A stretch of 64,000 nt of DNA, taken from assembly GCA_050084515.1 (NCBI GenBank), contig CM114271.1:11284001-11348000 (forward strand). The letters are read 5' to 3'. Made by a program: the position numbers and the translations under genes. Below the pieces are notes generated by a model that searched no databases, was not told the origin of the DNA, and saw only the letters and a program-made list of their open reading frames with translations. Numbering within the stretch: the first letter of the stretch is position 1; every line of letters begins with the position of its first letter. Origin of the DNA: Blasia pusilla (taxonomy: Eukaryota). Shown here in pieces: positions 1 through 54,263 of the stretch.

Positions 1-3000
1 AATCCGTCGGAGACTGTTGGGTTGCACGCTTCCCTCATCAAGGGTTAGGAACGATGGCTTCCCGTGCAAGTCGTCGGAGTCTGGCTGGCTGCACCACAAG
101 GCGGCGCCCTTGCGCAACCGGTTGGACGGCGACGGGTTGCACGCCTCGCCGTCTTTGGGCTAAAAGGCGAGGCACCCCCGGAACTCGTCGGGAACAGACG
201 GTTTGCACGCCTCCGGCATCTTCCAGCAAGAAGGAGCGGTATCCCGGCAAGTCGTCGGAGAGCGACGGGTTGCTTGCTTCGACAATGTTTAGCAGAAGCG
301 TGCAACTCGTCCGATGCCGACGGGTTGCAGGCTTCGGTAAGCTTCGGGTAATTTCTGAGTTACCAGGACCCCGACGGGTTCCAAGTGATGCGCAACCCTG
401 TGCTTCCCAAATCCGGTAACATATTGCAACAACATTGAATGTGTCACTGAATTGGATCCATTGTGTCAGACATTCTCCCCCACCGAATTCATCTTGTCAG
501 TAAAAATCTGTCAGGAGTATCTGTTTCCTATTCACTGTAAATTAAATATTCTCATTCTCATTCTCATTCTCAGTCTCAGTCTCCTCCCGTAGGAATCTTC
601 TTGGAATGGATAATTATGTTAAGCTCACTTGTGGCAGTCATCTGGTGGCCCTTCCTCAATCAGAAATCATTCGACCCCAAGCTCGTGAGTCTTTCGTAGC
701 AGTGGATGAAAATTTTCTGTCTGTTCGATTTCTTCTTCAAATTGGAACCATCTTTGTATCCAAAGATGTTAGGGTGGAAGGTATGGAAGAAATAATAGGT
801 GAGACGGTCCAGCAAGTGACCTCAACCGTAAAGTATGGAATCTCCTACCTATCGCAAATGGTCAATACAGAGTTTACGGCCTGCCCCTGAATTCGTCTGT
901 TTCCCAAGTAGACGGTCTAGAATTTCCTAGTGCTCCGAGCTCTACGTTTGCAACTCCAAGCTTTGCAGATCCGGCTTCGACTCCAACTTCGCACACTCGT
1001 AACAATGTTGTTCTTCCTGAAGAGATTCCGGATGTTATCAACCTCAGCGGATCTATCGAACACCAATCGGGCCCTGTGTCCGCCTACTCGTTCCTCTTGC
1101 GAGTATCAGGCAATAGTTTGCTTTCGTCTCTGCCCTTGAAAATGTTCAAGCACATTCTTGTCGACGAGCTGCCGCCCACGTACGATGAAAATTGCATTTT
1201 TGAGTTGCCTCCGCTTCTTTGCTCTGCTCAAAAGAAGGATGGAGGGCGCTGAAGGGTATGGACGAAAAAGTCGATTGTCATCGATGGTGCAGGCTTCAAC
1301 GGACCTGTGCTTCCATCCAGATGGTCCTTGGATTGTCTCCCGCCGCCAATGCGTGGGAGCCTTGGAGTGTAGAAGTCCAGCATGCCCGTATCTAGAGCGC
1401 AACGGGCGAGTCAATACGTCGCAATTCCCCCCCAAGAATGCAGAAACTCCATACGAGGTGGGTGCCACAATACCGCCGGGAGGCCATCGATGTCCTCATT
1501 GTCAGGCATCGCCCTTCTGCGTTGGAGCGTGTCCTGCATACATATTTTTCATTGTCCATGACTTGGGCTCCACGTCAGAGTATACAAAATTTGGCAGTTC
1601 ATGTTGGCTCCCACACTCATCCTGTGACCGATGCAATTCAAAGACACATCAAGGAGGATGTGGCGAAGAAAGTAGCCGAGGTCTTCAGAAACTCTCCGGG
1701 TTCAAAGCCCGGGGTGATCAAGCTCACAACGGCATCACAAATTTGTGAAAAATTGCTTGGAATCCCTGGACAGGGCAAGATCACGGCGGTTGAGGAGAAA
1801 CAACTCTGGGAAAATCTCGCGTTTCTCGCTGATCCTGAATGCTTCCGGAATTTGTTGCGTCAGATACGAGTTTTGGATGGAAAGACGGCCGAAATGGATG
1901 CCATCGCCAAAATCAAGGCTAACTCCAGATTTCCATTTATTCAGAGATGGCAGTTCATGGGCCAAGGAGGCGAGGGATCCAGGGCCTATGTCTTCAAAAT
2001 GTCAACCATAGGTCCCTCGAGTGGCCTCAATCTTATAGATCGAATGAGGGAAGGGGAAGATCTTTACGGGAGCCGGGTCGGCTTTGATATTTGCTCTGAG
2101 TCTTTGAACGGATGGTTGACGATGGGTGCTCACGTTTATGACCATGTGGAGAACGGACTCAAAACTATATTTGTGTGTGAAGTAAAGCGTAAGACGTTGG
2201 CGCGGTTTGAAGATGTCTTTGGTTACTCTTATTGGAGGTGGTGAAGGAAAACAAAAGGCCACCTCCGGAAATTTATGGGTTCATGGCGGACAATGCACAA
2301 CCTGGGTGGATTGCTATCCGGGAAATGTTATGGGGTGGAGAGGTTTCAACTGCAGAGGGAAAGGTCGGATGCTTTCCATTGGCAACAGTCTGTGACCCGG
2401 TACACCAAATCTTGCATCAAGGAGAATAAGAGGACAGAGCATGTCACTCTACTCCAACGCTGCAAGGACAAAAAAACCTTGAAGTAAAGGCCATGGACCG
2501 GGAAGAACTTCATGGGCGGTGGAGGGAGCATGCGATTGAGGGGAAGTACAAAGAGTTGTGCTCTTGGTTGAGTTGGTGGACTGTACGTATGAGACAATGG
2601 GGAAACTTCATGCGGCAGGTGAGTTCACTATTTTGTCTTGTCAAGCTCACGCTGAGAATTGTTTGTAAAGTTGTAGCTCAGGGTGAGAAGCGTGGGAATT
2701 ATATGGATTTCAAACCCAAGAAACCAAGCAAGTTGTCGGATGCGATGGGTTTCCCGAGTGTGCAACCCGACGGAAACCGACGGGTTGCCCAAGGGTGCAA
2801 CCCGACAGAAACCGACGGGTTGCATCCAGATGTTTGATGCAACCCGAGTGTGCAACCCGTCGGGACCCGACGGGTCACAGAGTCGTTCATGGGATGCCTC
2901 GGCCTTGCAACCCGTCGGGTTGCAGTAGGTGGGTTTAAGGTTACAACACGTCGGTTTCCGTCGGGTCGCAGAGTCGTTCATGGGATGCCTCGGGCTTGCA

Positions 3001-4987
3001 ACCCGTCTGGTTCTGACAGGTTGCTTATTTCTTTGACTCCTGGGTTATTTTCGTTCCCTTGTAACATTGCCGTCGTTGCAGGGATTGAACGTTCATGAAA
3101 ATGCCCTCTGCCCCAACACAAGTGGAGCAGAAAGTGTTCATTCCTCCTGGAGGTCGTCACAAGCATGCCAACGAATTTCACTTGTGGAGGCATGCCAACA
3201 AGACCAGGCAAGAGCAATCTACTGATCAGAGCATCCCATATCTTTCTCACAAAAGGCATAACAAAAGGAAAAGGGCCGTCGATCTACGGAGCTCTTTGTT
3301 AGGGCGGTTGTGAGATCTGGTGATGAAAATTTGTATGTCGAGCCCTTCACCGGTGCGTAGCTGGAACTCCACTCGAGCAAGACGTACACATTGGTGGGGA
3401 TATTCGTGCAGGGTGTTTCAAGACGTCCCCCATAGATGGTGGTAGAGCAGTCCGAACGAGACTCGTGGAGACCAGATAAGTATCTTGACTTCAGGCAGGT
3501 AAAGAGGCAGCATCGAGGAACGATTTCGGTGATTGATTTGGATGAGGAAATTACACCGCCCGAGTATTCGGGGACCCCGGACCCGTCCCAAATCCGTGAT
3601 GGAGTTACTTCTCCAAAATCAGTGAATGTTTTATTTCAAAAGCCCTCCTTGGCTGGAAGTTCGCAACATCCTGTCACTGGGGTGGTTCAACAATATGGGA
3701 TTCCGGCAATGGAGGTGGATTGCAACCTAAAACGGTGGCATATATCTCGGAGCAACCCAGGATGTGAACCCACCTGCAGGGCAGGATCTGATGGCATTAG
3801 GAGAGCATGCGACACTTTCCTAAATAAGAACTGTACAAGGACTGGACGACCTCTGCCTGGGTTTTGGGGACTCAAAACCTTTGATCGTTTCACGAGGACC
3901 GGGGATCAATTGAAGTACTTCTTCTGCCCAAATGAATCTTGCGCTTTCCGGGAGTCTTATCCGGCTGCCATTGGAGCTCTCGGGAATACCCCCACGATTT
4001 GGCCCATCGGCGCAGGCACGAACTGCACTCAAGACGAAGTGGACAATCTTACAAGTGCCGGTTTCAGACTCGTAGACGGGGGAAGTTCGAAGCATGTTCG
4101 CATTACAGAGACCTTCGCATTTTGTATTCAACCCAAGATTGATGTCAACATGTACCCGGAGAAGGTGGATGATCTCAATCCATTATTTCTGTTTGAGTCT
4201 AGAAATGGGGTGAAGAGAAACAGAATGTGTAGGCCAACGTTGGAGAGAGCAAAACGAATTGCAGCAGCTCGGGAGGCAAAAATGGAGATCATCGCAACGA
4301 AAGATGTCATGAGTGGCAATGGAATAGGAAGGATGTATTGGGTCAGGAACAACACTTTAAATTCAAGTGTCACAGGGGTGTATGTGGTGCACATCTGTTG
4401 CTTTCCCACATGTTCATGTGATGACTTTGTCCAAAGAGAGACAAAAGGCAAAAGGTATTTCCCTTCTAAGCAGATGTACTATGTGTTGCTGGTAGTTTTA
4501 AGAGATTCAGAGGTAGGAGTAGGAATCCACCAACCAATTCTGTCCCTCAAATAAGTTCGAAATATTTTAAACAAACCACTTTGAGGATGCAAAATGAGGT
4601 GGTTGATTGTACTTTTATTTTTTTCTCAACCTTCACTGTGAGCTTGAACTCTATTCAGCCCGGGGAAAATGATAGATTTTTTCCAGACCTTGGATGGAAA
4701 AAGTGATTGGTTCCACACTTATGATTCCACTGATTTTTCAGTTTTGTAAATTTTGTGCAATTTGCAACTCGTCGGACTCACAGGGGTTGCCAAAATATGG
4801 AAGAGGAAAAAAAATTTGTGGGATTGTTTAATAAATGAACAAAAATGTGCAAAAAATTCACACAAAAAGTTTCCTCTCTTCAACCCAACGGAAACTCTCT
4901 TAAAAAAAAAGTATCTATATCGGTTGAAGGTAGTTTCCTCTCTCCTCTCTCCTCTCTTCCTCTCTTCCTCTCCTCTTACCGCACCTC
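1..4987 (+). mobile_element. Mutator-like (MULE) DNA transposon copy E1, transposase arm; runs off the window on the left, right terminus ...ACCGCACCTC at 4987
   Basis: Contains the transposase pseudogene and palindrome clusters. The CT-rich subterminal tract and terminus are shared with copy E2 (8668-8677 ACCGCTCCTC). An 11-bp target sequence follows at 4988-4998. Confidence 0.8.
606..4584 (+). pseudogene. MULE-type DDE transposase with GCM/WRKY-like Zn finger and C-terminal SWIM finger; two exons, frameshifts and stops
   Basis: Zn finger: RQCVGALECRSPAC...RCPHCQASPFC...GSHTHP. Catalytic candidates: GFD (~2085), FMADNAQ (~2280), DAFHWQQS (CxxH-like, ~2370). GT-AG intron 2619-3081 is followed by NTSGAESVHSSW (third acidic residue). 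SWIM finger: CSCDDF...FP(C/S)K(H/Q)MYY. Confidence 0.8.
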
Positions 4988-5251
4988 TCAGGGGCGAGTA
5001 TCAGGGACGTCTGGCAGAGTGGCAGGAACATTCTCTGCCTTGAGGGAAGGCATGAATTTTTTGACCTTTGCAAAGAGGCAAAGGCATATTACAATAGGCT
5101 AGTTGGGGCGTACAACTCTCCTCCGAAGCCGACAACTTCGGTTCCAGACCCACCATTGGTAGTGACACCATCGTCACTTCCCACGATTTCAAAAATCGGG
5201 ACTGCAAATCCGACAGTAATTCGGGAGGAGCTCTCGGACGATGACGAGTGA
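4988..5251 (+). pseudogene. Inverted C-terminal fragment of the beta-class amino-methyltransferase cargo gene
   Basis: Translates SGASIRDVWQSGRNILCLEGRHEFFDLCKEAK...DDDE*, resembling the GSGTT..A...GR..IG.E....Y segment of N6_N4 MTases. It joins in frame to the minus-strand part ending at 8678-8688. Confidence 0.75.
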
Positions 5252-5289
5252 GTTCAAAGAACTCAAGGATCCAACTTAACTACAGCGTT

Positions 5290-6404
5290 TTGGAGTAGGG
5301 ATTTATTTGATGACGAGGCAGAAGAATTCATAGAATCGATCAAATGTATGGTTCTGAGCTTCCTTTGGATGTAATAAAGGACACGATTTTTTCAAACCAT
5401 GATGGTGTTTGTAAAATTTTGTTGAATATCTTTTTTGGTCTTGACGATTGTGATCGTCTATGTTTTCTGACACTTCATAATGCAACCCGTCGGATTGCCA
5501 CGGTTGCAACTTTTCACTTTTTGACCACTGCACCATTCTAACCACTTCCAGGCAACCTGTCGGATTCCGACACGTTGGCTCCATGAGTGATCGGACTCTT
5601 TCCCTGTTAGTCCAACTTTACAGGCATTCTGGCGGGCTTCTTCACTTTGGCATCTTCCCCTAGTTTCATCAAACAAGTCTTAGGCTTCCTCTCTTCTCTA
5701 AGACGTGTTGGATTCCTACTACCTGGCTGAGGACATGATGGTGGCTCCAAGGACGGAGCACATATTGATACTGGATGGGTATCACCTTGCAGAGCGTACA
5801 AGATTTACTGCCAAAGAAGGCGGTGGGACTCAAATAAGGTTACATGGAACCGTTATGGTGTACGTAGGGGGGTGCCAAGGCTCTCGAATTCGCCAACATT
5901 TTCGATCCCCGTCTACAATCGGCCAGAGGAGCTACTTGTATCCCAGGACATTCCTTTTGTACAGGAACCTAGGAGAGTTAGGAGTAAATTTGTAGATGAC
6001 GAGGCTGAAGAAATCATAGATTAGATCAAATGTACATTTGTGAGCTTCCTTTGGATGTAATAAAGGACAAGATTTTTTCAAACGATAATGGTGTTTGTAA
6101 AAGTTTGTTGAATATTTTTTTTGGACTTGTCGATTGTGTTCGTCTAGCTACTTAGAATGTTTATTTTGCAACCCGTCGGATTCCGACATATTGCAACTTT
6201 TCACTTTTTCACCACTGCAACTTTTTAACCATTTACAAGCAAGCTGTCGGATTTCGACAGGTTGGCTGCTTGAGTGATCGGACTCTTTCCCTGTGAGACC
6301 AACTTTTGAGGCATTGTGGCGGGCTTCTTCACTTTTGGCTAGTATTGTCGAACCAGTTGTAGGCTTCTTTTCTTCTCTAAGACGTGTTGGATTCCTACTA
6401 CCTG
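5290..6404 (+). repeat. Imperfect ~420-bp direct duplication (about 5290-5725 and 5980-6404) around a unique ~255-bp segment
   Basis: Both copies run from GATGACGAGGC.GAAGAA.TCATAGA to GACGTGTTGGATTCCTACTACCTG. Confidence 0.85.
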
Positions 6405-7079
6405 TCGGATTGCCATTTTGGATTCCCAACCGGTTGGATTTTTGTGGGTGCAGGGTGGAATGGAATCACTTCTCAAAATCTTTCCTTTGTTATGTTGAGC
6501 TTGCTTGCAAGGGATGCAAGCCATTTGATTCGGACGAGTTGCAAGAGTTGCAACCTGTAAAATTCCGACAGGTTGGGAGGGGTGCAGCTTCTCGGTTTCT
6601 CAGATTTAGGATCTGAATAAACGGACATCAGTTCCTCTTTACTCCAGACAGCTAACAATCTTTTGGTTCAATTATCGTCTTCTGTGTTCACATTTCACAA
6701 AGTTGGTCTTTATTTGAACCTTTCATTGAGATGAGATTGCTACTTCTGGTCTAATTATTTGCCAATGATCCTCCAACAAAAAAAACCTTTGGGCACAACT
6801 TACTGTAGACTGAGACAGGCAATGTGAAGAAACTTAGGCTCATATGGAGAGTGATGGAAAATTTTTTTAGTGGTCTTATGATGTCTACGTGTTTTTCGCC
6901 CCAGGAAAAAGGAGGTTTCTTTAGGCCCAAATGTGGACCACTACCTACTCTCTTCTAAAGATTTCATGAATTTGAAAGCAAACAAAAATTTCAAATATGT
7001 CAAAAAGTTTTGAAGGCGGCGGCGTTTCAATAGCCTTCAAATATGAGAGGAGGCAGATTTGGCCCTTTTTTTCTAACGA

Positions 7080-7142
7080 GAGACTCTCCTCTCTTCCTCT
7101 CTTCCTCTGCTCTCTTCCTCTCTCCTGCCAGAATACCAACCC
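7080..7142. mobile_element. Probable second (cargo-side) terminus of the MULE element, now inverted
   Basis: CT-rich tract like those at 4935-4978 and 8625-8667, followed by an abrupt junction into the middle of the SWIM exon of copy E2. Confidence 0.5.
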
Positions 7143-8677
7143 CCAGATAAGTATCTTGGCTTCAGGCAGGTGAAGAGGCAGCATCGAGGAACGAACCCGA
7201 TGATTGATTTGGATGAAGAGATAACGCCGCCAAGGTATTCGGGGACCCTGGATTGCTCCAAAATACGTGCTTGAATAACTTCTCCAAAATCAGTGAATGT
7301 TTTATTTCAAAAGCCCTCCGTTGTTGGAAGTTCGCAACATCCGGTCGCTGGGATGGTTCAACAATATGGGATTCCGGTCATTGAGGTGGATTGCAACCTC
7401 AAAAGGTGGCATATATCTCAGAGCAACCCTCAACGTGGACCCACTTGCAGGGCAAATCTGATGGCATTAGGAGAGCATGCACCACTTTCCTAAATTAGAA
7501 GTGTACAAGAACTAGACGACCACTCCCTAGATTTTGGGGACTCAAAACCTTTGATCGTTTCACGAGGACCGAGGATCAATTGAAGTACTTCTTCTACCCA
7601 AATGAATCCTACGCTTTCTAAAAGTCTTATCCGGCTGCCATTGGAGCTTCGGGGAATACCCCCACGATTTGGCCCAACGCCGCAAGTACGAATTGCACTC
7701 ACGACGAAGTGGACAATCTTACAAGTGCTGGTTTCATACTCGTAGACAGAGGAAGTTCGGAGCATGTTCGCATTATAGAGACCTTTGCATTTCATATTCA
7801 ACCCAAGAGTGATGTCAACATGTATCCGGAGAAGGTGGATGATCTCAATTCACTATTTTTGTTTGAGTCTAGAAATGGGATAAAGAGAAACAGGATGTGT
7901 AGGCCAACGGTGGCAAGAGCAAAGCGAATCGCATCAGCTCGGGAGGCAAACATGGAAATCATTGCCACAAAAGATGTCCAGAGTGGCAATGGAATAAGAA
8001 GGATGTATTGGGTCACATTAACACTGTTCATTTAAGTGTCACAGGGGTGTATGTGGTGCATATCTGTTGCTTTCCCACATGTTCCTGTGATGACTTTTTC
8101 CAAAGAGAGACAAGTGGGAAAAGGTATTTCCCTTGTAAGCACATGTACTATGTGTTGCTTGTAGTTATAAGAGAGTCGGAGGTAGGAGTAGGAATCCACC
8201 AACCAATTCTGTCCCTCAAAGAAGTGCAAAGTATTTTAAACAAACCACTTTGAGGATGCAAAATGAGGTCTTAGATTGTACTTTCATTTTCCAGAACCTT
8301 CACTTAGAGCTTGAACTCTATTCAGCCCAGGGCAAATGATAGATTTTTTCTAGACCTTGGATGGAAGAAGTGATTTGTTCCACATTTATGATTCCAATGA
8401 TTTTTCAGATTTTTAAATTTTGTGCAAATTGCAACCAGTCGGATTCAAAGGGGTTGCCAAAATATGGAAGAGGAAAAAAAGATCAGTAGGAGTGCCTAAT
8501 CAGTGAAAACAAAAGTGCAAAAAAATTCACCAAAAAGTTTCCCCTCTTCAACCCAACAGAAACTCACTTCAAATCACAAGAAACTCACTTCAAAAAAAAG
8601 TCTCTCTTTGGGTTGAAGGTAGTTTCCTCTCTCCTCTCTCCTCTCTTCCTCACTTCCTCTCTTCTTTACCGCTCCTC
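7143..8677 (+). mobile_element. MULE copy E2: 5'-truncated SWIM exon plus right terminus
   Basis: Collinear with 3472-4987. The SWIM motif CSCDDFFQRETSGKRYFPCKHMYY is intact at 8008-8253; the copy is frameshifted. Confidence 0.9.
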
Positions 8678-11600
8678 CTCGCCCCTGATAGGGCCACTAA
8701 GTCAAAGACCAAGTCACCTGGCCTCGAGCAAAGCTCCATGAGTGTTTGCATCAAGGCAGGTGACTTCTCCCTTCCTTCAAGTAAGGGGATCCCTTGGGGG
8801 AATTGTAGAGACTATCTAAGCTGTACCCATCACAGCATGGATCCACTGGATCCGGGATCTGGAACGCCTGGAAGTTGTGCTCGGGCCTTACAAAGCAGTA
8901 AAAAAATGAGTGGTCCATGTGTGAACAAGCAAGTGGAAAATAATGTCAACAAAAAGAAAAAGCTAGTAGACCGCTAGTCTACTCTCAATATAGTGACATA
9001 ATGTGCAACCCGTCGGGATCCGACGGGTTGCTCATTTGGCTAGGCAGAGGAGCAACCTGTCGAAGTCCGACTGGTTGCTTTTCATCCCGTCCTACTAGTC
9101 CATAATGATTACCAACCCGTCCAAACTTGGCCTACAGGCCCTGACAGAACAGCAACATGTCGGAGTCCCACGGGTTGTTTTTCAACTCTAAGTGGATTCT
9201 TTGGCTATGAGCAACCAGTCAGAAGCTGACAAGCTGCTCATTTTGTCGGACAGAACCTCCACTTGTCAAAGTCCGATGGTTGGCTTACAATTGAATACAA
9301 TTCTTCAGAGTTGAGAGTTTCTTAATATGAGAGCAACACGTCGCTTTCAGACGGGTTGCATCACTCCAAAAACATGTGGAAAAGCAATGCTACTTGCAGC
9401 CCGTCGAGTTTTGACGCGTTGCAATCAATGGAGACTTGTTGGTGAATTTGCAACTCGTCGGTTTCAGACGGATTGCAACATCGCTGACACAAGTGCAAAG
9501 GATCTCAGGAAAGTTTCTAAGGTGAATTTGCAAGCTGTTGGGATCTGACGGGTTGCATGCAGAGATGGAACCCGTCGGAGTCTGACGGGTTGAATTTCTG
9601 TACAAACTCAATTGGTTGAAAAAGAGCACTTACCCGGACTTGAGTCATCACCGATATGAGTGGATTACTCATTTTTAATGACCCATGATTGCGCCATCCT
9701 CCACTTCAGCGACCTCTTCACGCACTGAAGGTTGAAGAGCTCATCTTCGCTCCCTCCCGTGAGGACCAAGAAACAATCCTTGCCACTCAGATTCGCGTCG
9801 GCAAAAGAAAACAACAGCGCGATCTGGTCATACGAAAGCAGGACATTCCAGTCTAGGACAGTGTGTGACGGATTATTGTCCCACAAGCGAATCCCAAAAG
9901 GCAAATCCGCAATGAGGAGGTCCACCGCCACCTCCTCAACAACCCCATGCACCGTCTAGGGGGCGTGCCCGTTTCGAAGGAGTTTTCGTCCCAGCACGGT
10001 CAATTTCTCGATGGCAGGTGTCGACTCTTGAGAACTGAAACTGTGCAGCTCATCGACAAGATGAGTCAAGTGAAGAAGGACATTTGTCTTGGTGGTAGTT
10101 TCCCTATGCCTGCCCAAGAATGATGGAGTGTATTCCACATCCTTATCTCCTCCCTCGGACTAACCAGACGCCTCCCGCTTTCACTTCTCCTGAGTCTGCT
10201 ATCCGCTTGTTGGAGTCTCCATTACCTTAGACTCCACATGAGTTTTCTTGGACGAGGACCTGGTCCAGCCCTCTTGCCCCGCTTGCCCAGACGATTCCGC
10301 CTCTCACCTTGAAGACTCAGCCTCTTTTCTCGAAGAGTCGACTTCGGAATTCCTCGATCCCCTTGCCTTGGATTTCAAACCCGCTATGGATTTTTCTTTG
10401 GCGGTGATGACCTTTGCCACCAACTCCGCTATCTTGAGGGCTTGCTCTTCCGCATCTCCTTTGAAAAAATTGTTAGGCTTCACGAAGTTCGGAATGTCGT
10501 CCCTACCTGCGACCAGTGCATGATAGACCACACGTAGATTTTTGTCCGTAATGTCCTCTGAGTGGTTGAAGTCCAACCAGATTGGACAATTGATTACCTC
10601 CTAATCGGACATGCCCTATCCCATCTCCATGTCATTTATGGAGAATCCCTCTCCATCAAGCGGAGAAGCCCACAATTTGCAGGCTGCCGGAATTTTTTGC
10701 CTAGTACCTGCATTCATACAATTGATGAGGTACCTGTACACCATCCGCTCGGCAGCTCTTTGTTGAGATGACTCGACCCCTTGGTCCTGAAGATCTCGCT
10801 TCTTCTTTGCAAAATCCCATTTTCTGGCGTCTATTTCCTCATCCAGGTCTGCCTGAGGGAGGATGTGATTCTTGAACATCATCTTGAATCATGGGTTTTT
10901 CGTCAGCTTCTCTCTAATGTCATCAAGCCATAGTTCAAAATCTTCTACAGCCTCTAGGTTTGCTTCTTCTGGAACTGGCTGAATCTTCTTCAGCTCTGCT
11001 TGTAGACCCACGATCATGGACTTCCCGAGAAGGCGCAATGCGTCCCAGAATGACCATTCCCGTAGCCAATGGGAGATCACTAGATCTGAAACTCCCAACG
11101 GGTGGTGTGCCGCCCACTTTTGGGCCTCAGTGCCCTCGAGACTGATTTTCATCAATCGGATATCCCAGACATCGCAAACCTGTGCACGCGGTCCAGAGAC
11201 ACTTTCTCTCCAATCTGACCCTGTGGATCTTCGTCTCTCTTCCGCACGCGCTTGATTATCGCCTTGAGCTCCTTGTAAAACTCCGGGCCAAGTTCGGGGT
11301 TGAGGACTGCAATATAACGCTGCATCTTGCTTGCAATGTACTTTGTAGTTGTAGATACGGCATCCTGAATAAACTTTGCACATTCTGATGCGGACACGTT
11401 CTCCCTTTGCTCCAGTTCCAACGTAGCACTATTCTTGGCGGCCTGGATCTTGGACCAACATAGGATTGTGACGGTTGCATCTTGGGAAATGAAGGTATTT
11501 TCCCATGTCTTCTTTTTTATTTGAGCTCCCTTTTCCAGCATTTCATTCACCAGATCCTGGCCCATGAATCCCTTGTACTCTTCCGGGTGCATCGTAAGCA

Positions 11601-13945
11601 CCTTCTTGACCGTGTTGCAATCTTGGATCCAGTGGTGGGTGACGTTCCCCTTGGATAAAATCCTGCAAATCCAAACACAAGGTAAGAATACTGCAAGCTA
11701 TTGGGTTCTTGCAACCCGTCGGACTTTGACGGATCGCTATTTTGTCAACCTTTCGGGGTCCAAATTGTAGCATAGAGATACGTGTTGCAACCCGTCGGAC
11801 TCCGACGGGTTGCAATTCTATCAATCCATCGGGATCCAAATCATAGCACAGAGATAAGTGTTGCAACCCATTGTACTCCAACGGGTCGCAATTTTTTCAA
11901 CCCATGGGGGTCCAAATCGTAACACAGAGATAAATGTTGCAACCGGTCGGAGTCCGACGGGTCGCAACACTCGTCTTTGTGTTATATTTATTACAACACG
12001 CTTGAAATTTTTAGAGAGAATTGCAACCCATCGGAGTCCGACGGGTTGCACTTTGTGTTCGTGACTCTCAGGTCCAAGCGATCGGTTCCTCTTATTCCTT
12101 GGTTCCAACCCGTCGGACTCTGACGGGTTGTAGAATGACTTCCTTTCGGAGATAGGTTTCCGGATAAAAACTGACCATATCAACCTGTTAGAGTCCAACT
12201 GATTGCGCAATGGCCCTGTAAAGCTGGAATTGGATGCCTAAGAGCAAGGTGTGGGACTCCGACCACGTAGCTTGGGGGAAAATGCAACTTGTCGGAGTCC
12301 GACGAGTTGCTTCCGCCAAAAGTATCAAAAAAATAGCAGACAGTCCAACAACTCGTCAGACTTTGACGAGTTGCTTTTAGGCGTCCGATGATTTGTTACC
12401 CCTCATTGTGCAACTCGTCTAAGTCCGACGGATTGAAGAAAAAATAAATCATGCAGTCATTTTTCCACCCGTGGATGTTTAACTGGTTTCAGTATCCCGG
12501 ATTAATGTTGTGAGCTTGGCCACCAGGCAACCCGTCGGACTCCGACGGTTTGCTTGACTATGACCTTGATCACAAATAGGATGGTGGCAAGAGACTCAAA
12601 TCATTCTTGCCCATCTCTAAGCTTTCCAATTATGCAACCCGTCGGACTCCGACGGGTTGAAGCAATCAAACTTAAGGATGAGGAAACTTACGTATTCATC
12701 GCATGCATTGCCATTTCCACCCTTGCCATGTGATGAGGAAATGGATGGAGCACAACTGACTTCACACAAAAATGCGCCTCCAATGAATTTGGGTGCTCCT
12801 CTACAAACTGCGTCCACGCCATGTACATGTGGTTCCCATCCCAAATGAAGAAGTAGAGGTTCCGGATCTAGCTAAATTGGGTTCCTTCAATCGCTCTTCT
12901 GAAGTCCTGATCTCTCATCCTCCACAATGTATCCAATGCCTCCAAGTCCTCTTCTGTCACCAGAGCTTGGGTTCCATGTTCATTGTAAGGCTGAACATAG
13001 AACGGAGGGAAGCTGTCGACGTAGGATTTAGTCGCTGCTGACTGTTTGAGCTTTGCAATGTCCTCCTTCGACTAAATTTCACGCACATACTTCATTGTCC
13101 GCAATCGACAGAGTGGATTTCTTGGGGCCTTTTGGCCTTCCATTTGTGCCATCTGCTTAACAACCCGCCACAATGGGGACAAAGTCAATAAAATACTATG
13201 TTTTGCCAATGAATTGCATAATGAGCCTTCACATAACTTGAGTTTTTCTTACCCGCTCAAAGATTGGGTCGGTGTCCAAGCCCGCCAGCTGCTTTGGGAC
13301 AGGAGCTGGCAAGTCCACGGGAAACTCATCGATCCGATAAAGGTCGATTTCTTCCACCGGCCTCAAAGACGACAAAGACTCTTCTCTTGCTTCTTCAGAG
13401 ATGTCCACCATCTCCACACTTGTTGTCCTCGTGACCTCATCGTCCGTCACTTGAACTTCGGCCATTTCCTCAGCCAATTTTAGATTCATGGTATCCCAAG
13501 ACCTCATCGGAGATATTTCCTCCATCTCAACATTGTTTGTTGGATGGGCACGGATTTCTTCAATGGCAATTTCTTTTTCTCTTTGAGCTTTCCCCAATTC
13601 TGCTCTCCTGGCGGAGGCGTCAAGACGCTTCTTCTCGCGTTTCTCGTCCGCGACAATTTTCTTCAAGGCCTTTGATGCCTCAACCTCGGCGTTTTGCTTT
13701 GCAAGCTCCTTTAGAGCAACTTTTGCTAGAACTTCCTGCCTGTGCATATCTGCTTCCCTTTCCCGCTCCTCTATTTCTTGTTGCCTTATCTCATTCGCTG
13801 AATGAGGACTTGGAGATGGTGATGCAGGAGTCCTGATAGACTTGGGAGTGATGCTCCCTACCTTGGTTACTTGTGTTTCCTTTCTCGTCATGGTGCACGT
13901 TGGGTCAGTTCTTCCTCCTTGACAGTCTAATCTGCTCTTGTGCAC
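8678..13945 (-). pseudogene. Cargo gene: charged/coiled N-terminus, ParB/Srx-like domain and beta-class N4C/N6A DNA methyltransferase; at least 3 exons, decayed
   Basis: ParB-like: VREI*SKEDIAKLKQS...PPFYV...FFIWDGNHMYMAW (WDGNH at 12829-12843). GT-AG intron 12691-11663 splices in phase. Motif IV VDLLIADLPFG (DLPF at 9896-9907). Second intron 9633 to ~8887. Motifs X/I EKSPALMQTLMELCSRPGDLVFDL at ~8700-8775. Start codon uncertain. Confidence 0.75.
11785..11815. repeat. Perfect exemplar of the dispersed palindrome TTGCAACCCGTCGGA-N-TCCGACGGGTTGCAA
   Basis: 15-bp inverted arms with a 1-nt spacer. Degenerate copies cluster at 1-400, 2740-3030, 9000-9600, 11700-12660, 14300-15000 and 17790-18650. 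Confidence 0.95.
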
Positions 13946-14289: not shown

Positions 14290-15000
14290 CCCCGGAAACC
14301 CATCGGATACCGATGGGTTGCACACTTCCCTCATCTTGGGGATACAAGGCGAGGTACCCGGGCAACCTGTCCAAGACCGATGGGTTGCATGCTTCCCTCG
14401 TCTTTGGGTAACAAGGCGAGGTACCCGCGCCACGCGTCGGAGGCCAACTGGTTGCATGCTTCCCTCGTCTTGGGGTAACAAGGCAAGGTACCCAAGCAAC
14501 CTGTTTGAGACCGACGGGTTGCAAGCTTCCCTCATCCTCAGGTAACAAGGCGAAGTGCCCAAGCAACCCATCGAAGACCGACGGGTTGCACGTTTCTCTC
14601 GTCTTGGGATAACAAGGCGAGGTACCCGTGCAACCCGTCGGAGACCGATGGGTTGTACGCTTCCCTCATCTTGGGGTAACAAGGCAAGGTACCCGCGCAA
14701 TCCGTCGTAGACCGATGGGTTGTACGCTTCCCTCATCTTGGGGTAACAAGGCGAGGTACCCGTGCAACCCGTCGGAGACCGATGGGTTGTACGCTTCCCT
14801 CATCTTGGGGTAACAAGGTGAGATACCTGTGCAATTCCTCGGACACTGACGGGTTGCATGCTTCCCTTGTCTTGTGGTAACAAGGCGAGGAACCCAGGCA
14901 ACCGGTCTTAGACCAACGGGTTGCATGCTTCCCTTGTCCTTGGGTAACAAGGCGACAAAGCATAGTCCCGAGGCAACCCATTGACCTCCGACGGGTTACA
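14290..15000. repeat. Tandem array of ~10.5 units of 67 bp, each containing the palindrome
   Basis: The (A)ACAAGG anchor recurs at 14343, 14410, 14477, 14544, 14611, 14678, 14745, 14812, 14879 and 14946, an exact 67-bp period. A degenerate homologue lies at 1-340. Confidence 0.95.
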
Positions 15001-17737: not shown

Positions 17738-20700
17738 AAAGTTGTAGCTCAAGTTGAGAAGCGTGTGCACTATAGGGATTTCAAACTGCAGAAAACCAAG
17801 CAACCCGTCGGAAACCGACAGGTTGCATCAAGAATGTTTGTGCAACCCGTTGGAACTCGACTGGTTGCATGAGTGTCACACCCGTCCGAGCGCGACATCA
17901 TGCACGAGGAATGTTTGTGCAACACGTCGGAACCCGATTGGTTGCATGAGTGTGCAACCCTTTCGAATCCCAATGAGTTGCAAGTTGCATGTATACAAGG
18001 CCTGCAAATAGTTTGATGCGGATGGGTTGCAAGCCCCAAGGCTGCGAGTTAACTTGGTCTGCAACCCGTCGGATTCCGACAAGTTGTGTCTGTCTGCAAC
18101 TTGTCGGATTCCGACTAGTTGCCTCTGTATGCGACTCATCACATTCAGACAGGTTGTTGTTGTCTCCAAGTCCTCGCATCCAGACACGTTGCATCAGTGC
18201 AAGTTAATTTGAACCCGTAAAATTCCAATAGTTGCAAAGCTACCTATGTGGACACTTCTTGCAAGCCAACAAAATCCGACAGGTTGCACAAGGATTTTTT
18301 AGACCGGACCGGCCTGCTTCTCACAACCCGTCCGATTTTGATGGGTTGCAGTAGTAGGTTCCCGAGTGCTAGGTTGCAATAAAAGGTTATTGGGACATTC
18401 CAAGGATGTCTCCAACTTGCAACCCGTTTCAAGTCGGAGGCTGGAAAATCCATGTGCAACCCATCGGATTCCGATGACTTCCAGTTGGATCTTCCAGCCC
18501 GGAGTGGCCAAAGTTACTTGCAACCCGTCTGAACCCCACAGGTTGCACTAGGTGGTTCTTGGATGTTGCAACACGTCGGAAACCGACCGGTCACAGAGTC
18601 ATTCATGGGATGCCTCCGACTTGCAACCCATCTTGTTCCGACAAGTTGCTTTTTTCTTTGCTCATAGAGTTATTTTCGTTCCCTTCTCATATTTCTGTCG
18701 TTGCATGGATTGAACATTCATGAAAATGCCCTCTGCCCCAACATAAGTGGAGCAAAAAGTGTTCATTCCTCCTAGAGGTCATCACAAGCATGCCAAAGAA
18801 TTTCATTTGTGGAGGCATGCCAACAAGATCAGGCAAGAGCAATTATCGCGCCCCTACTCTCCTTGAACGTCAATCTTTAGTGTTGCGGAAGCGTGCGTTC
18901 AGTAGGTCACGAACTCATCGCCGATCTGCACCCAAACACGCACTCTCGTTAGTCGGGTTTGGCCAACCAGCGTTCCAACCCACCAAGTCCTCAACTCGGC
19001 GTCTCATTAAGCTCAACCTTCCTTAGTTCCTAGCTCCCAACACATGGCAAGTCCTTCAAGACTTGGAACAGACTTCCTGGTTAGTCCAGGGATCTGAAAC
19101 AGCACTTGCACGCCTAGCAATCCCAGCTATTCAACGGTCCTCGTGTGAGTTCCGAACCGAGACCCAAGTAGTTGAGTCGCGGCGTGAAATCCAAGAGGGA
19201 TGCCTAAAATCGCCTCAATGGACTTGGTGCAGGTTTTCCAACCCAACGCCCAAACTCGCGTTCCGTTCCATGCCCTTGAGCTGCCCCGCGGCGCCCAAAG
19301 TGGGGTTTGGGTTCCAAGCACTCTCGGAGACCTGCCCCCTTACTAGTACTTTTGGGGTTCTCCAATAACCCCTCCCCTTTGGGAAAAGAGGTTCGGGCCC
19401 TTCATTGTGGCCCTCAACCTGACTCCACTTACAGTTGTTTTCGGGTTGTATCTCGGCCGCTGCTTATGCGTTTGCAACAATCTTTGGTGCGTTTGGACCG
19501 GCTCTCCATAAGCTTTCCAACGCACCCTTATTTGCTCCAAAACCATCTTGGCGCTAAAAGTTATGGCCATAAATACAGTCGGAAACTCTCAAACGTAAGT
19601 GGCGTTCCAAATCCGGATCTTTCCTTTGGCAACCCCCTTCCTAGACTCGACTTCTTTCAAGTCTCATTCCGCGTTTGGTCCAGGTTTCTGAGTCACAACC
19701 ATAACACCTGAAACGCGATTCCTTGCTCGCGTCTCGTCTCTTGTCTCCTCTTTGAGACACCTCCAACGCGCAAACCATCTTAGCGTGAGTCCGCTAATGT
19801 TCTGATGTTCCGCTTGGTACTTGTTTGGTCATGAGGGTCGCGACAGCAATGGTACAGTCTGCAGCATCCCATATCTTCCTCAAAAAAGGCATAACAAAAG
19901 GAAAGGGGCCTTCAATTTATGAGCTCTATGTCAGGGCGGCTGTGAGATCTGGTGATGAGAAACTCTATGTGGAAGCCTTCAATCAGTGCGTAGCAGGAAC
20001 TCCTCTCGAGCAACATGTCCACATTGGTGGGGATATTTGTGGGCGTGTTTCAAGACGTCCCATACAGATGGTGGTAGAGCAGTCCAAGCGAGACTCGTGG
20101 AGACCAAATTAGTATCTTGACTTGAGGCAAGTGAAGAGGCAACATCGAGGAACGAACCCAATGATTGATTTGGATGAAGAAATTACGCCCTGGTATTCGG
20201 AGACCCGGGATTGCTCCTAAATCTGAGATGCAGTAACTTCTCCAAAATCACTGAATGTTTTTTTTTCAAAAGCCCTTCGTTGCTGGAAGTTCGCAACATC
20301 CGGTCGCTGGGGTAGTTCAACAGTATGGGATTCCGGTCATTGAAGTGGATTGCAACCTCAAAAGGTGGCATATATCTCCCAACAACTTTGAACGTGGACC
20401 CACTTGCAGGGCAAGATCTGATGGCATTAGGAGAGCATGCGGCACTTTCCTAAATAAGAAATGTACAAGGACTAGACGACCACTCCCTAGATTTTGGGGA
20501 CTCAAAACCTTTGATCGTTTCATGAGGACCGAGGATCAATTGAAGTACTTCTTCTGCCCAAATGAATCCTGCGCTTTCCAAAAGTCTTATCCGGCTGCCA
20601 TGGGAGCTCCAGAGAATACCCCCACGATTTGGCCCATTGCCGCAGGTACGAATTGCACTCAGGACAAAATGGATAATCTTACAAGTGTCCACTTGAGTCT

Positions 20701-21618
20701 CGTAGACGGAGGAAGTTCGGAGCATGTTCGCATTACAAAGACCTTCGCATTTCGTATTCAATCCAAGATTGATGTCAACATGTATCCGGAGAAGGTGGAT
20801 GATCTCAATCCACTATTTTTGTTTGAGTCTAGAAATGGGATAAAGAGAAAGAGGATGTGTAGGCCAACGGTGGAGAGAGCAAAGCGAATTGCATCAGCTC
20901 GGGAGGCAAACATGGAAATCATCACCACAAAAGATGTCCAGAATGGCAATGGAATAGGAAAGATGTATTGGGTCATATTAACATTGTAAATTCAAGTGTC
21001 ACAGGGGTGTATGTGGTGCACATCTGTTGCTTTCCCACATGTTCCTGTGATGACTTTTTCCAAAGAGAGACAAGTGGGAAAAGGTATTTCCCTTGTAAGC
21101 TTATGTACTATGTGCTGCTTGTAGTTTTAAGAGAGTCAGAGGTAGGAGTAGGAATCCACCAACCAATTCTGTCCCTCAAAGAAGTGCGAAGTATTTTAAA
21201 CAAACCACTTTGAGGATGCAAAATGAGGTCTTACATTGTACTTTCATTTTCCAGAACCTTCACTTTGAGTTTGAACTCTATTCAGCCCCAGGCAAATGAT
21301 AGATTTTTTCCAGAACTTGGATGGAAAAAGTGATTTGTTCCACACTTATGATTCCAATGATTTTTCAGATTTTTAAATTTTGTGCAAATTGCAATCCGTC
21401 GGATTCAGAGGGGGTTTCCAAAATGTGGAAGAGGAAGAGAGGAGAGAGGAGAGAGGAAACTACCTTCAACCCAAAGAGATACTTTTTTTTAAGAGAGTTT
21501 CCTATGATTTGAAGAGAGTTTCCGTTGGATTGAAGAGAGGATACTTTTTATGTCAATTTTTTTGCACTTTTATTCTCAGTGCGTAGGCACTCCTGCACAA
21601 AATTTTGCCCTCTTCCAC
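17738..21618 (+). mobile_element. MULE copy E3: transposase intron (palindrome-expanded), second exon with SWIM finger, rearranged subterminal region
   Basis: Collinear with 2668-4970. Splice acceptor mutated (GTTGCAT at ~18700). Interrupted by a solo LTR. Confidence 0.9.
18844..19845. mobile_element. Solo LTR (~1.0 kb) with 5-bp target site duplication GCAAT
   Basis: Ends TATCGCG...CGCGACA (TG..CA with one change). GCAAT at 18839-18843 and 19846-19850. The MULE exon continues on both sides. Confidence 0.9.
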
Positions 21619-21619
21619 T

Positions 21620-24600
21620 CAACTATAAACCAGTATCACACACAATCACAAGGTGGTGATGGTGGAAACCATTGGGGTTGAGATCAGTAGTAGAGGATCC
21701 CTGGATCTTGCAATTACTATGGGATAAAGGATCACTATGCAAAGTTTTGATTCAAGAAGAAGGCAGATATGAGAACAAGAGCCTTACAACAACAAAATTA
21801 TGTGGAGCAACAACACGAAGAGCAGTAACAAAAACAACATCATTCACAAACGAAGCATCTCTTGATCATGACTCATCATATGGAAGCAATGGTCAAGAAA
21901 GACTCGACAGCAGATTGGTACATTGATTCTAGAGCATCAAATCACATGACCTCACAAGCTAAATGGTTTAGTAGTTTGGAGCCGGTGAAAGATCCTGCAA
22001 TTGTGCTCATAGGAGATGACACTCAACATCATATCACGTAAACCGGTAAAGTTCCAATAGCATCATATGGTCTTTGTGCTCTTGGAAATTTTCTTTATAT
22101 TCCTACCATTGCAAGAAACCTGATCTTTGTAGTACATATAGTAGAACACGGTTATCAAATGAAGTTTAACGTAGATGGTTGTTTTATTGAAATAATGGAT
22201 GACCAGACTACGATAGCCAAAGGAACTAGATCTGGCAGAATGTTCAAATTAGATATTTTTATACCAAAGATTCAAACAGCAATGTATGGTCAAACCGGCC
22301 AACAAGTCACAGATCTAAATATGTGGCATAAAAGAATTGGACATATGAATCTTCAAAGATAACAGAATCTTTCATCATCTAATATAGTAATAGGACTCCC
22401 TAAATTAGCAAGTCCTACTACATTAGAGGTATGTCTTGCTTGCCAATTTGGAAAACAAGCTAGATTTCCTTTTCCAAAGTAAGATAGAAGAGCATCTACG
22501 ATATTGGAGTTGATCCACAGTGATGTGTGGACAACATCACAACATAGCCTTAGTGGTTGCCAGTACTTTGTTTCATTTATTGATGACTTCTCTAGATATA
22601 TATGGATATACTTTCTGAAAGCCAAGTCAGAGGTATTCTCTGTGTTCCAAACATCCAGAGTTCTAGTAGAGAAGCAAATTGGAGAACACATTCTGAAATT
22701 GCGTTGTGATGGAGGAGGAGAGTATCTTTCAACAGAGTTTGATGACTATTTACGTAAGAATGGCATTCAACGTCAAGTGACTTGCCATTACACTCCACAA
22801 CAAAATGGAGTGGCTGAGAGGAAGAATCGACATATTGCTGAAGCGGCACGAGCTATGTTGAATGAGAAGAACATGCCTAAGGTCTATTGGGCAGAGGCTG
22901 TAGCATGTGCAGTTTTCTTAATCAACTGAACTCCAACAGCAGGAGTTCATGATAAAACTCCATTCGAAGTCTTCACAAAAAGTAAACCTGATTTTTCCTT
23001 CTTGAAAGTATTTGGCTGTATTTGTTACGCTCATGTTCCTTTTGAGAGAAGCGTTGTTAGATCCCAAGTCTGAAAGATGTTAGATCCCAAGTCTGAAAGA
23101 TGTATCTTCATTGGCTATGCTGATGGAACTAAGGGATATAAGTGCTACATTCCATCCTCTAGGCAACTTATTATTAGTCGAGATGTTGTCTTTGATGAGC
23201 TAAAGTCATGGTATGCTCCATATGTGCCTATTCCACCTTTAAACTTGTATATTGAGGGGGAGAATATGATTGTAAACCAACACACATTGTCTTCAACTTC
23301 CCCAAGTATTAGTGCAGGATTAGGAGAGGTCCTAGATTCATGAGTTAAATCTGTAAGTCCATGGATGGGAAGAGTACGTATTCAGTCTGTTGACACTAGT
23401 CAGAGCTTGAGTCAGGTATTACAAGCATCTACCTCTGAACAACAACTTCGTAGATCAAGTAGAGTTATACATCCAGTTCATAGAATCATAAATGAAGGTT
23501 TCCTTTCGACACATCATGCATATATAATGATTATCCTTCAAGAACAAGAGCCAAATTATTTTGAAGAAGTTGCAAGTAAAGTCGAATGGATTGAAGCTAT
23601 GGAGGAAGAGCTTGCTGCATTAAGACATCAACAAACATGACAGCTGGTTGATATACCTTCCGGTAAGGAAGCTATTGGTTGCAAATGGGTTTACAAAATC
23701 AAGCGCAATCAAGATGGTGCAATTAAGAGATACAAAGTGAGATTGGTGGCTAAGGGCTATGCACAACAATATGGTATCGATTATGAGGAAACATTTAGCC
23801 CTGTTGCAAATATGGCGACTACGAGAACAGTGGTTGCAGTTGCAGTAAGTAAGAAATTGAGATTACATCACATGAACGTCAAGAATGCTTTCTTGAATGG
23901 AGATCTATACGATGAGGTATATATATGACTCAGCCATCTGGATACGAGCATCCAAAGTTTCCATTTCGCGTATGCAGGTTGAAGAAAGCTCTATATGGGC
24001 TCAAACAAGCTCCAAGAGTTTGGTATGGCAAGATTACATACGTTCTACAAGAGTTGGGTTTTAGGGTATGTGATTCTGACTCCTCGTTATATGTCTTGAG
24101 AGGAAAAGATCATACGGTTCTCATTGTGTTGTATGTTGACAATCTCCTGATTACTGGGAGTATTGAAGAAATGGTATAACAAGTCAAGCTTAAGTTACAA
24201 GTAAAATTTGATATGAAGGCCTTGGGAGAACTCAAGTACTTCCTTCGTATTGAGTTTATCAAGGTTGGAGAAAGCAGGTGGTTACTACAACGACAATATG
24301 CTATTCATATGCTTTCAAAATATGGTATGACAGCTTGTAAGTCAATCTCTACACCGTTGGACCAAAGCGTGAAGCTAAGAGTGGATGAAGGAGAGATGCT
24401 TGCACATTCTAATATGTACAGGCGCGTGGTTGGAAGTTTAATCTATCTAACTATAACCAGACTAAATTTGAGTTATGGTGTTGGCCTAGTGAGCCAGTTT
24501 ATGCAAGCACCTCGGAAACCTTACCTTGATGTTGTGAGGAGGATTATGCAGTATGTGAAATTCTCTATTCAATTCGGGCTTCAATTTGAACCTTCTCCGA

Positions 24601-25407
24601 GTTCTCAATTATAAGGATTCACAAATGCTGATTGGGCAAGAAGCCTGTCTGATCAACACTCCACATCTGGTTATTCATTTACTTTGGGAAGCGAAGCTAT
24701 AAGTTGGGCTTCAAAGAACCAACCTACAATTGCTTTATCTTCAATAGAGGTTGAGTACAGAGGAGTAACCAATGCCGCATGTGAGGCGGTGTAGTTTCAT
24801 CAATTACTTGTTGAGATTGGTGTTAGTAACTTAAGACCTAGTGTAATATATGCAGACAATATTAGTAGCATCAAGCTTGCTAATAACCTTGTGTTCATGC
24901 TCGTACAAAGCATTTTGAGGTGCACTATCATTTTATCAGAGAGAAAGTACTTGCAAGAGAAATAGATCTTGTGTATATAGGTACAGATCAGCAAATTGCT
25001 GACATCTTTACAAAGGCATTGTCGAGAGATAAGTTTGAGATGTTTAGAAATTATTTAGGCGTTAGAGATATCGATATGAGCTTAAGGAGAAGTATTGAAG
25101 ATTGAGTTATAGTCAAGCTCATGAGACACCTGAACTGCTACATTTGGTACTCACACGAAGTAGGGAAGCTTAATGTTGGTTAGTCAGTTAAGCGCGATTA
25201 TCTTAACTATGGTTAGTTAATCACAGTTAGTCTAACTCGAGATTAAGGTTAGTGTTAGAGTTGCTTGTACATACCCTATATAATTGAGAAGGGGAACAGC
25301 CTCTATTCATTCTCTCATTGCAAATTTCGTTCTCCATGGTGGTGTGTGTGTGTGAGAGCCGTTTTCCACCAGTTATGCTTGTTTAGCAGTTTTCCATAAA
25401 TCTAACG
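21620..25407 (+). mobile_element. Ty1/copia retrotransposon relic, 5' truncated, with 3' LTR at about 25093-25407
   Basis: Domain order: protease WYIDSRASNHMT, WHKRIGH, integrase (LIHSDVW, LRCDGGGEY, PQQNGVAERKN), RT (RLVAKGY, LYGLKQAPR, LYVDNL), RNase H (QQIADIFTKAL), then a purine tract at ~25084. Many stops. Confidence 0.95.
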
Positions 25408-50801: not shown

Positions 50802-50950
50802 CTATGTACATTTGGGACACATCCATCGTCCCTGAGGAACCCTGGTGAGAGGTGGCGTCAAAGATGCCATATGCCATCTTCTCGAACACCCATCACAGAC
50901 TAGCATAGTGGTTGCACCATAGACGGAACCACACAACATACACCGCAAGC
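50802..50950 (-). pseudogene. PHD finger at the pol C-terminus
   Basis: CMLC...MLVCDGCSRRWHMASLTPPLTRVPQGRWMCPKC (C4HC3 with one C>S). A second copy lies at ~63830-63975. Confidence 0.9.
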
Positions 50951-53053: not shown

Positions 53054-54263
53054 TGTGATACCCATAATTTTGTAATCTTGAAGAATATATCTTTTTATTC
53101 AACAAAGACTCTTGTATATTATGATTATTTATTATTATGAGGAAGAATAAGTGAATCACAAAGCTCTTGGGACAAGGGAGAGAGATGGAAGATCAAGGAT
53201 TTGCCTTAGAGAAGAGGAAAACGCAATAACGAAGTCTCAAGACTCAGAACGAAGCTCAACGAAGATGTACGAAGCTCTGTTTTTGTAGTGCTTCGCTACA
53301 TAACGCAGCATCACGAAGAAAATAAGAAAGAAGTACTTCGCTCTTTAACGAAGCGCGAAGCACGAAGTACGAAGCACCGGAGATAAGAACGAAGCATGGA
53401 GTACTTCGTCCTCCTGAAGTCCAACGAAGCGAAGCTAAGAAGGACTGTGATTTCAAGAGACACATGTTAAAACAGCTAGACTAGGAAAGGGCGTGAACCT
53501 TTGTATCAAATTGGTAGTTAGGACAGTTTTGTAGTGCGGACTCACAGGGATCATAGGAAAAGCTAAGAGAACCATAGATCTAGGTAGTTAGAAATAGTGA
53601 AGAGACACTAGCTTCATCAAGAACGTTTCGAATCTTTGGATCACTTCCACTCCAGCGAATATTTAAGAAGCAAGGCAAAAGCCATAATCATCATTCTCTT
53701 ACAAAGTCCTTATGTTGTAGGAATGGTCCGAGCAAGAGAGTAGTACCCTCTCAAGCTTGTATACACTTTGAAGCTTTCTCGTTCTTGATGGAGTAGTAAA
53801 GCAATCATTCATTCATTCTGATGTGCGATGATTATGTCTGAGTATTCTTTTTGGGTTTGCAGAGTGAAGAGTGAATCAGACGAACCTTTCTCATCAATGA
53901 AATAATCAACCTGAGTTGTAGGAAATCTGTTTGACAGAGAGTAACCTGCCGAGACGGATTGAGTTGCGAAAGTAGGAGAAGCCAACTTTTGTGTTGAGAT
54001 CTCTGTGAGGTTTCTTGATGTCGAGAGGAAAATCTACCTGAACATGCTGTCAATTCCACTAGAAAGAATCGAGAAAACATCCTTTGGTACTAAGAAAGAT
54101 TAGAAGATATTGATAAGACATTGAATATAACTCACACACCTTTAAATACAACTATTACAACAGAATTGTAATTCCGAACTCTCTTTTCATCAAACAATGA
54201 TCCTCTTAGGGATCGAACTTATTAAAACGACTATAAACTAGAAACACTTGTACATTACATATA
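53054..54263 (+). mobile_element. Solo LTR inserted into the gypsy RT; same family as 16524-17737
   Basis: Runs TGTGATACCC to TACATTACATATA, with flanks GCACA/GCACC. RT coding (PGGLG / QQIKVEAI) resumes across it. Confidence 0.85.

Follow-up and report, generated by a model that had tools for sequence, protein, structure and literature searches.

The 64,000-nucleotide stretch of the Blasia pusilla genome studied here (the window; GenBank assembly GCA_050084515.1, contig CM114271.1, positions 11,284,001 to 11,348,000) holds three copies of a repeat unit that we call E, all on the plus strand and within 22 kb, together with a methyltransferase-like gene whose last exon is divided into two halves of opposite orientation. 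The division coincides with an inverted segment of 3.7 kb (4988-8677/8688) that comprises one repeat copy (E2), ~2 kb of additional sequence, and the 3′ half of the exon, with another copy (E1) lying outside it (Table 1). Comparison of the window with itself (blastn) aligned E1 (3472-4987) and E2 (7143-8677) in direct orientation at 87.1% identity over 1540 columns, and this alignment ends exactly at 4987 and 8677, where the two copies read ...ACCGCACCTC and ...ACCGCTCCTC, respectively. The shared 3′ terminus is ...ACCGC[A/T]CCTC, and the end region carries transposon-like subterminal tandem repeats of 21 bp. The element termini are thus located exactly at both breakpoints of the inversion.

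Table 1. Coordinates of the E repeat copies, the mirror duplication, and the split methyltransferase-like gene in the window
Feature	Positions	Strand	Basis or remark
E1, unit copy outside the inverted segment	~2909-4987	+	3′ terminus at 4987; blastn
E gene, zinc-finger and SWIM-finger protein	3076-4554	+	tblastn, profile search
Target duplication, copy 1: TCAGGGGCGAG	4988-4998	+	Directly after the end of E1
Last exon of the methyltransferase-like gene, 3′ half (87 codons and stop)	4988-5251	+	Translation; gapless continuation in the computed join
Sequence putatively once downstream of the methyltransferase-like gene, carried in the inversion	5252-7142	.	blastn
E2, 5′-truncated unit copy inside the inverted segment	7143-8677	+	3′ terminus at 8677; blastn
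Target duplication, copy 2: CTCGCCCCTGA	8678-8688	+	Directly after the end of E2; exact reverse complement of copy 1
Last exon, 5′ half (44 codons and 2 bases), preceded by AG	8678-8811	-	Pfam PF01555, own profile
Upstream exon, degenerate motif IV	9668-9952	-	Own YhdJ-type profile, positions 33-50
Copy 3 of the E unit	~18532-21436	+	blastn; third sequence for dating
Terminal region of copy 3, inverted	21431-21617	-	Lacks the last ~26 bp of the terminus

The 11-mers that follow the two E termini are exact reverse complements of each other, in agreement with both the sequences and the positions given in an earlier note on this DNA. Complementarity cannot be extended on either side, as neither 4987 (c) and 8689 (t) nor 4999 (t) and 8677 (c) pair, and the duplication is therefore exactly 11 bp long. 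Reverse-complement pairs of 11-mers are common in themselves, with 2341 in the window and 633 whose members lie within 5 kb of each other. The signal is positional: the chance that each of two aligned repeat ends is followed, from its very next base, by one member of such a pair is ~4^-11, or 2.4 × 10^-7, for one fixed position pair. The observation is genuine, and chance falls far short of accounting for it.

If the minus strand, read as far as 8678, is connected to plus-strand sequence starting at 4999 so that the 11-mer appears a single time, the target exon is restored as one open frame of 44 + 87 codons with its stop at 5249-5251, which confirms the uninterrupted frame reported earlier. 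In the methyltransferase-like exon, 4988-4998 reads as the codons S-G-A and the first two bases of S. The 44 residues of the 5′ half match positions 165-193 of the 221 in Pfam PF01555 (N6_N4_Mtase) with an E value of 0.024 and 15 bits, below the cutoff of 26.7, and the rest of the profile should then fall in the other exon half; scanned as separate pieces, the 3′ half and the upstream exon were not matched by PF01555. In N6/N4 methyltransferases of this order, motif IV (D/N/S-P-P-Y/F) lies near the N terminus and the S-adenosylmethionine (AdoMet) motif I (F-x-G-S-G) near the C terminus. Our own profile, built from 79 YhdJ-type proteins from 80 loci found with Escherichia coli YhdJ as the seed, aligns to the join through its positions 204-255, gapless across the junction, and scores 5.5 bits there, compared with 3.6 bits for the 5′ half alone, 2.1 for the upstream exon, and 2.0 for the best of 600 shuffles. 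The upstream exon is colinear with the last exon and reads D-L-P-F where the family has D-P-P-Y, while the joined exon reads A-L-S-G-A-S where the profile has P-F-s-G-S-f-T-T. Because the three pieces are colinear and correct spacing at the junction requires a single 11-mer, we take the 11-mer to be coding sequence of the target. The opposite case, which the earlier note had named as one that would overturn its proposal, is that the 11-mer belongs to the element terminus; within the limits of the window, the open join and the gapless profile alignment place it in the coding exon instead. Judging from its degenerate residues and low scores, the gene is methyltransferase-like and may be inactive.

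The three E copies differ in extent and in state of preservation. E1 matches copy 3 at 86-88% through 2909-3218 and 3230-4808 (blastn), and its left limit is fuzzy, with arrays of a palindromic motif (see below) upstream. E2 matches copy 3 at 91.6% (blastn) and has a sharp left border at ~7143, where homology to both E1 and copy 3 begins abruptly. Copy 3 holds ~1 kb more than E1, between 18843 and 19863. Over 1330 aligned bases of all three copies, identity is 89.0% for E1-E2, 88.6% for E1-copy 3, and 92.0% for E2-copy 3, with 90, 44, and 51 unique changes in E1, E2, and copy 3, respectively. Since E2 is nearer to copy 3 than to E1, E1 and E2 were probably different copies rather than one freshly duplicated, which fits the earlier proposal that the two ends came from different copies. 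A CT-rich run at 7084-7130, directly left of the E2 truncation, resembles the subterminal CT-rich run of the E 3′ end (30 bp, 96.7%); this likeness may have arisen by chance in low-complexity DNA or may record how the truncation came about. The terminal ~165-188 bp of copy 3 are inverted relative to E1 and E2, in a piece bounded by a 9-bp inverted repeat (TGGAAGAGG / CCTCTTCCA), for which a microhomology-mediated origin is one possibility. Beyond this piece lies unrelated sequence, followed by copia-like gag/integrase/reverse transcriptase (RT) pieces at 22042-24611; no pair of long terminal repeats that would allow the end of copy 3 to be recovered past the copia-like sequence was found. Within the inverted segment, 5309-5725 and 5995-6404 form direct repeats of ~417 bp that are 83.5% identical and 270 bp apart.

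Because the copies are direct, the mirror duplication adjoins both termini, and one copy lies inside the inverted segment and one outside, we read the locus as a product of alternative ("reversed-ends") transposition, and a single event of this kind is the best single explanation of the inversion, with a probability of roughly 55%. We infer a progenitor in which two E copies stood head to head, with a short spacer between their opposed 3′ termini, E1 being complete on that side and E2 already 5′-truncated, with the methyltransferase-like gene ~2 kb beyond E2. A transposase would have cut both facing termini, with loss of the spacer, and both ends, still attached to the chromosome arms, would have been inserted together into one site of the last exon with a stagger of 11 bp. 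With the E1 end going to the far side of the target and the E2 end to the near side, E2, the 2 kb, and the 3′ half of the exon (now 4988-8677) would have been flipped, and gap filling would have left one 11-mer at each junction, in mirror orientation. Formally, when X> in A-[X>]-spacer-[<Y]-B-t-C is joined to the B side of t, the product is A-[X>]-rc(t)-rc(B)-[Y>]-t-C (rc, reverse complement), where rc(t)-rc(B)-Y corresponds to 4988-8677; the derived order and orientation are those observed. This geometry implies the use of two like (3′) ends of a head-to-head pair. As the exon halves are still open and the 11-mers still perfect, the event is probably younger than the E copies.

The coding capacity of E bears on whether the unit could have moved in this way. 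The E1 gene contains a 372-aa open reading frame (ORF) that is open from 3436, with family homology from 3076, and residues 11-503 of the protein P0001 (507 aa) align to 3076-4572 in one frame (tblastn); its counterparts in the other copies are located at 7143-8250 and 20068-21201. A profile search places the protein in an unnamed plant family and recovered 219 representatives at an E value of ≤0.001, 89 at 1e-10, and 22 at 1e-30, typically 450-520 aa in length. Named relatives (4/8 looked up) are "SWIM-type domain-containing" or hypothetical proteins, from liverwort and fern. A Pfam scan of 42 members, from 150 listed, identified a SWIM finger at an E value of ≤0.001 in seven and a fusion to domains of long interspersed nuclear elements in one; in the E protein itself the SWIM finger is C-terminal, and there is no Pfam family beyond SWIM. 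Its AlphaFold2 model has a mean predicted local distance difference test score of 77 and is good from residue 81. A Foldseek search of this model against the PDB returned nothing at an E value of ≤0.001. VIA-align weakly matched the cysteine-rich N-terminal part (residues 97-211) to PARP-type zinc fingers (Z 4.8, root mean square deviation [rmsd] 3.4, 83 aligned residues) and, again weakly, residues 264-367 to SWIM-domain chains (ZSWIM8: Z 4.2, rmsd 2.9, 77 aligned); the best Z of 4.8 is within the range of unrelated matches and excludes no family. No transposase chain occurs among the structure matches listed. Metagenome scans for E relatives found none by protein alignment and none by a 33-base pattern, an atlas search with the ORF at 1438-2241 returned nothing, and a word-based protein search for the family gave one match.

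Several results weigh against a transposition event at this locus. A MULE (Mutator-like element) or other DDE transposase domain was found in 0/42 scanned E relatives and in 0/90 window ORFs, and none lies near any E copy. Of 109 stop-to-stop ORFs with a length of ≥95 aa, the latter scan took in 90, the 19 omitted being satellite ORFs, the E and methyltransferase ORFs already scanned, antisense ORFs in E copies, and two others; it yielded pieces of copia and gypsy retroelements and a small number of host-like exons. The window contains no inverted copy of the E terminus, no partner in the form of a terminal inverted repeat (TIR), and no recognizable left end; an inverted match at 35273-35297, considered as a third terminus, was rejected as GA-rich low complexity only. 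It likewise contains no third intact terminus and no sibling with an intact terminus, the end of copy 3, the sole inverted piece of an E end, being rearranged. That E is a cut-and-paste element, with ends that were transposition-competent in the words of the earlier note, has been deduced from this single event only. On the side of the target, absolute support for the methyltransferase assignment is weak (Pfam below its cutoff, own profile at 5.5 bits), searches of the protein collection gave no close homologues of the upstream exon, among longer proteins, or of the 3′ half, and a PDB sequence search with the two last-exon halves gave one chance match and nothing, respectively. An autonomous partner of E may lie elsewhere.

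A history in two steps also speaks against a single event, as by our own derivation it ends in the same order and orientation. First, a unit whose outer ends are alike would have inserted into the exon in the ordinary way and generated a direct duplication of 11 bp; this unit would have been a composite of two E copies arranged tail to tail or a family member whose TIRs measure at least 1.5 kb. A later inversion would then have had one breakpoint between the arms, at what are now the left edge of E1 and 7142/7143, and the other at a point ~2 kb downstream from the gene. The left border of E2 at 7143, abrupt and beside the CT-rich run, could be such a breakpoint, and the left limit of E1 is undefined. 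Nevertheless, two events are required, the second of which must break exactly between the arms; approximately three quarters of the SWIM gene would fall within a TIR of 1.5 kb; 11% divergence separates the arms, with E2 nearer to copy 3 than to E1; and there is no inverted copy of the E body beside E1 or copy 3 in the window. We consider this history unlikely. What the earlier note called a reversed-ends footprint therefore holds as a geometry, by our derivation and by comparison with the inversions described in the available part of PMC8225341, but not as a unique diagnosis.

Two further explanations dispense with transposition in forming the inversion. Transposase-free repair would combine a break at the center of a palindrome of head-to-head E copies with a staggered break in the exon, followed by end joining; alternatively, E could be a locally duplicated gene. 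The presence of three copies in one orientation within 22 kb, the lack of a recognizable transposase in the E gene, and the microhomology-bounded inversion at the end of copy 3, which indicates that repair-type rearrangements occur in the family, are in line with such an origin. Yet resection and end joining would rarely leave both copies with the same last nucleotide, a target stagger of 11 bp is typical of transposase action, and an inversion by staggered breaks would result in long duplicates of inverted orientation, in contrast to the direct E1 and E2; we regard repair of this kind as very improbable. The same prediction led us to reject a simple staggered-break inversion, of the sort reportedly described by Ranz in 2007 for Drosophila, a study to which PMC5113708 also refers. 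The chance of an assembly artefact, in which a false join or orientation was introduced at repeated E sequence, appears slight at most. Both junctions do lie at the edge of a repeat that is present three times in 22 kb, but E1 and E2 differ at ~11-13% of positions, too much for repeat collapse, each diverged copy continues unbroken into its own flank, a misjoin would not yield a mirror duplication that is perfect over 11 bp and reconstitutes an exon, and the window is free of N. Recombination between inverted copies and replicative intramolecular transposition, both of which would set unlike ends, one left and one right, at the two junctions, were also rejected, as each fits only with TIRs of at least 1.5 kb. 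Finally, taking 4988-8688 as a 3.7-kb element with 11-bp TIRs finds no duplication in the flanks and leaves both the coincidence with the E ends and the restored exon unexplained.

The family to which E belongs is less clear than the event. Target duplications of MULEs are said to measure ~9-11 bp in the Wicker classification of 2007, and MULE TIRs are usually ~100 bp or longer. The MULE label used in the earlier note is unsupported: the 11-bp length alone fits, with neither a transposase domain nor a TIR partner in the window, and apart from this length the label could draw only on the SWIM finger of a protein that cannot be recognized as a transposase. The available part of PMC6839031 yielded no statement on MULE duplication length. 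Rather doubtfully, we propose that E is the end of an undescribed bryophyte/fern cut-and-paste family with 11-bp duplications, which would encode a protein with PARP-like zinc fingers and a SWIM finger instead of, or beside, a known transposase, and that the locus is a fixed footprint of alternative transposition involving two like (3′) ends of this family.

Several known systems resemble the proposed event. In the inside-end ("inside-out") deletions and inversions of Tn10/IS10, facing like ends of inverse insertion sequence (IS) copies are directed at a target close by, with loss of the intervening segment and inversion of neighboring DNA; these are bacterial IS elements with a 9-bp duplication, and the likeness is one of mechanism only. 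Among plants, the well-documented inversions by reversed-ends transposition of maize Ac/fAc (hAT) stem from a joint reaction of two termini that belong to separate neighboring elements; the target duplication typical of the family adjoins each terminus exactly, one element lies within the inversion and the other just beyond it, and the spacer is lost, as set out in the available part of PMC8225341. Two termini of separate nearby elements, an inverted flanking segment, and a duplication at both termini are thus common to Ac/fAc and to our locus (PMC8225341, in part). In Ac/fAc, however, the elements are directly oriented, with a 5′ end opposite a 3′ end and a duplication of 8 bp, whereas here like 3′ ends of inverse copies are implied, with a duplication of 11 bp; the E family is not hAT; and the Ac/fAc cases are observed derivatives of a known progenitor, in contrast to the fixed footprint described here. 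A head-to-head pair of VANDAL21 elements (Mutator-like) with a ~200-bp spacer in Arabidopsis met1 gives rise to inversions, deletions, and spacer loss that fit alternative transposition, according to the accessible portion of PMC12312487. Those events are somatic, and in that portion of the report their target duplications are unresolved, whereas here both junctions and the duplication are resolved; VANDAL21 is also a Mutator-like element, a membership that is unproven for E. A 1.17-Mb inversion in Arabidopsis thaliana, on chromosome 4 and bearing Vandal5 at both breakpoints, split an F-box exon (PMC5113708, in the part at hand). Like our inversion, it is natural and fixed and cleanly halves an exon into opposite orientations, but it spans 1.17 Mb and, as far as that part of the source goes, carries no target duplication, so that 3.7 kb and a perfect 11-bp duplication make the stronger transposase signature. 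The locus differs from these precedents in its two like ends, its resolved 11-bp duplication, and its unnamed family; it adds a neat further example of a mechanism already known and opens no new one.

The best-known cases of alternative transposition come from loci that were engineered or closely monitored, such as maize p1/p2, rice transgenes, and Arabidopsis met1. It is less common to find a footprint that is natural and fixed and in which both junctions, the duplication, and the restored target gene are all legible; the Arabidopsis inversion on chromosome 4, for one, shows no duplication. If the proposed event is true, alternative transposition also shapes genes in a spore-bearing land plant. 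In addition, the locus provides the exact 3′ terminus and the stagger, 11 bp, of a repeat family unnamed in current libraries and, for annotation, a handle for locating the other ends and the transposase of the E family; should the reading as an undescribed family be true, this would be the first definition of its terminus and duplication length.

The remaining content of the window includes a ~30-bp palindromic motif (GCAACCCGTCGG-n-CCGACGGGTTGC) that is scattered on both strands, in tandem arrays with periods of 35, 67, and 76 bp (2743-2823, 11709-11967, 14297-14955, and 18057-18191) and as single copies, e.g., at ~4765-4795 and in the intron at 8812-9667. It yields recurring peptide strings in many spurious ORFs and may represent either a satellite of this genome or a miniature hairpin repeat. 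The minus strand also carries a weak fragment of a C-5 cytosine DNA methylase at 55981-56397 (E value of 0.003, below the cutoff), a PHD-finger exon at 50805-51167, an Armadillo-repeat exon at 44923-45261, and gypsy-type RT/RNase H pieces at 52099-54667.

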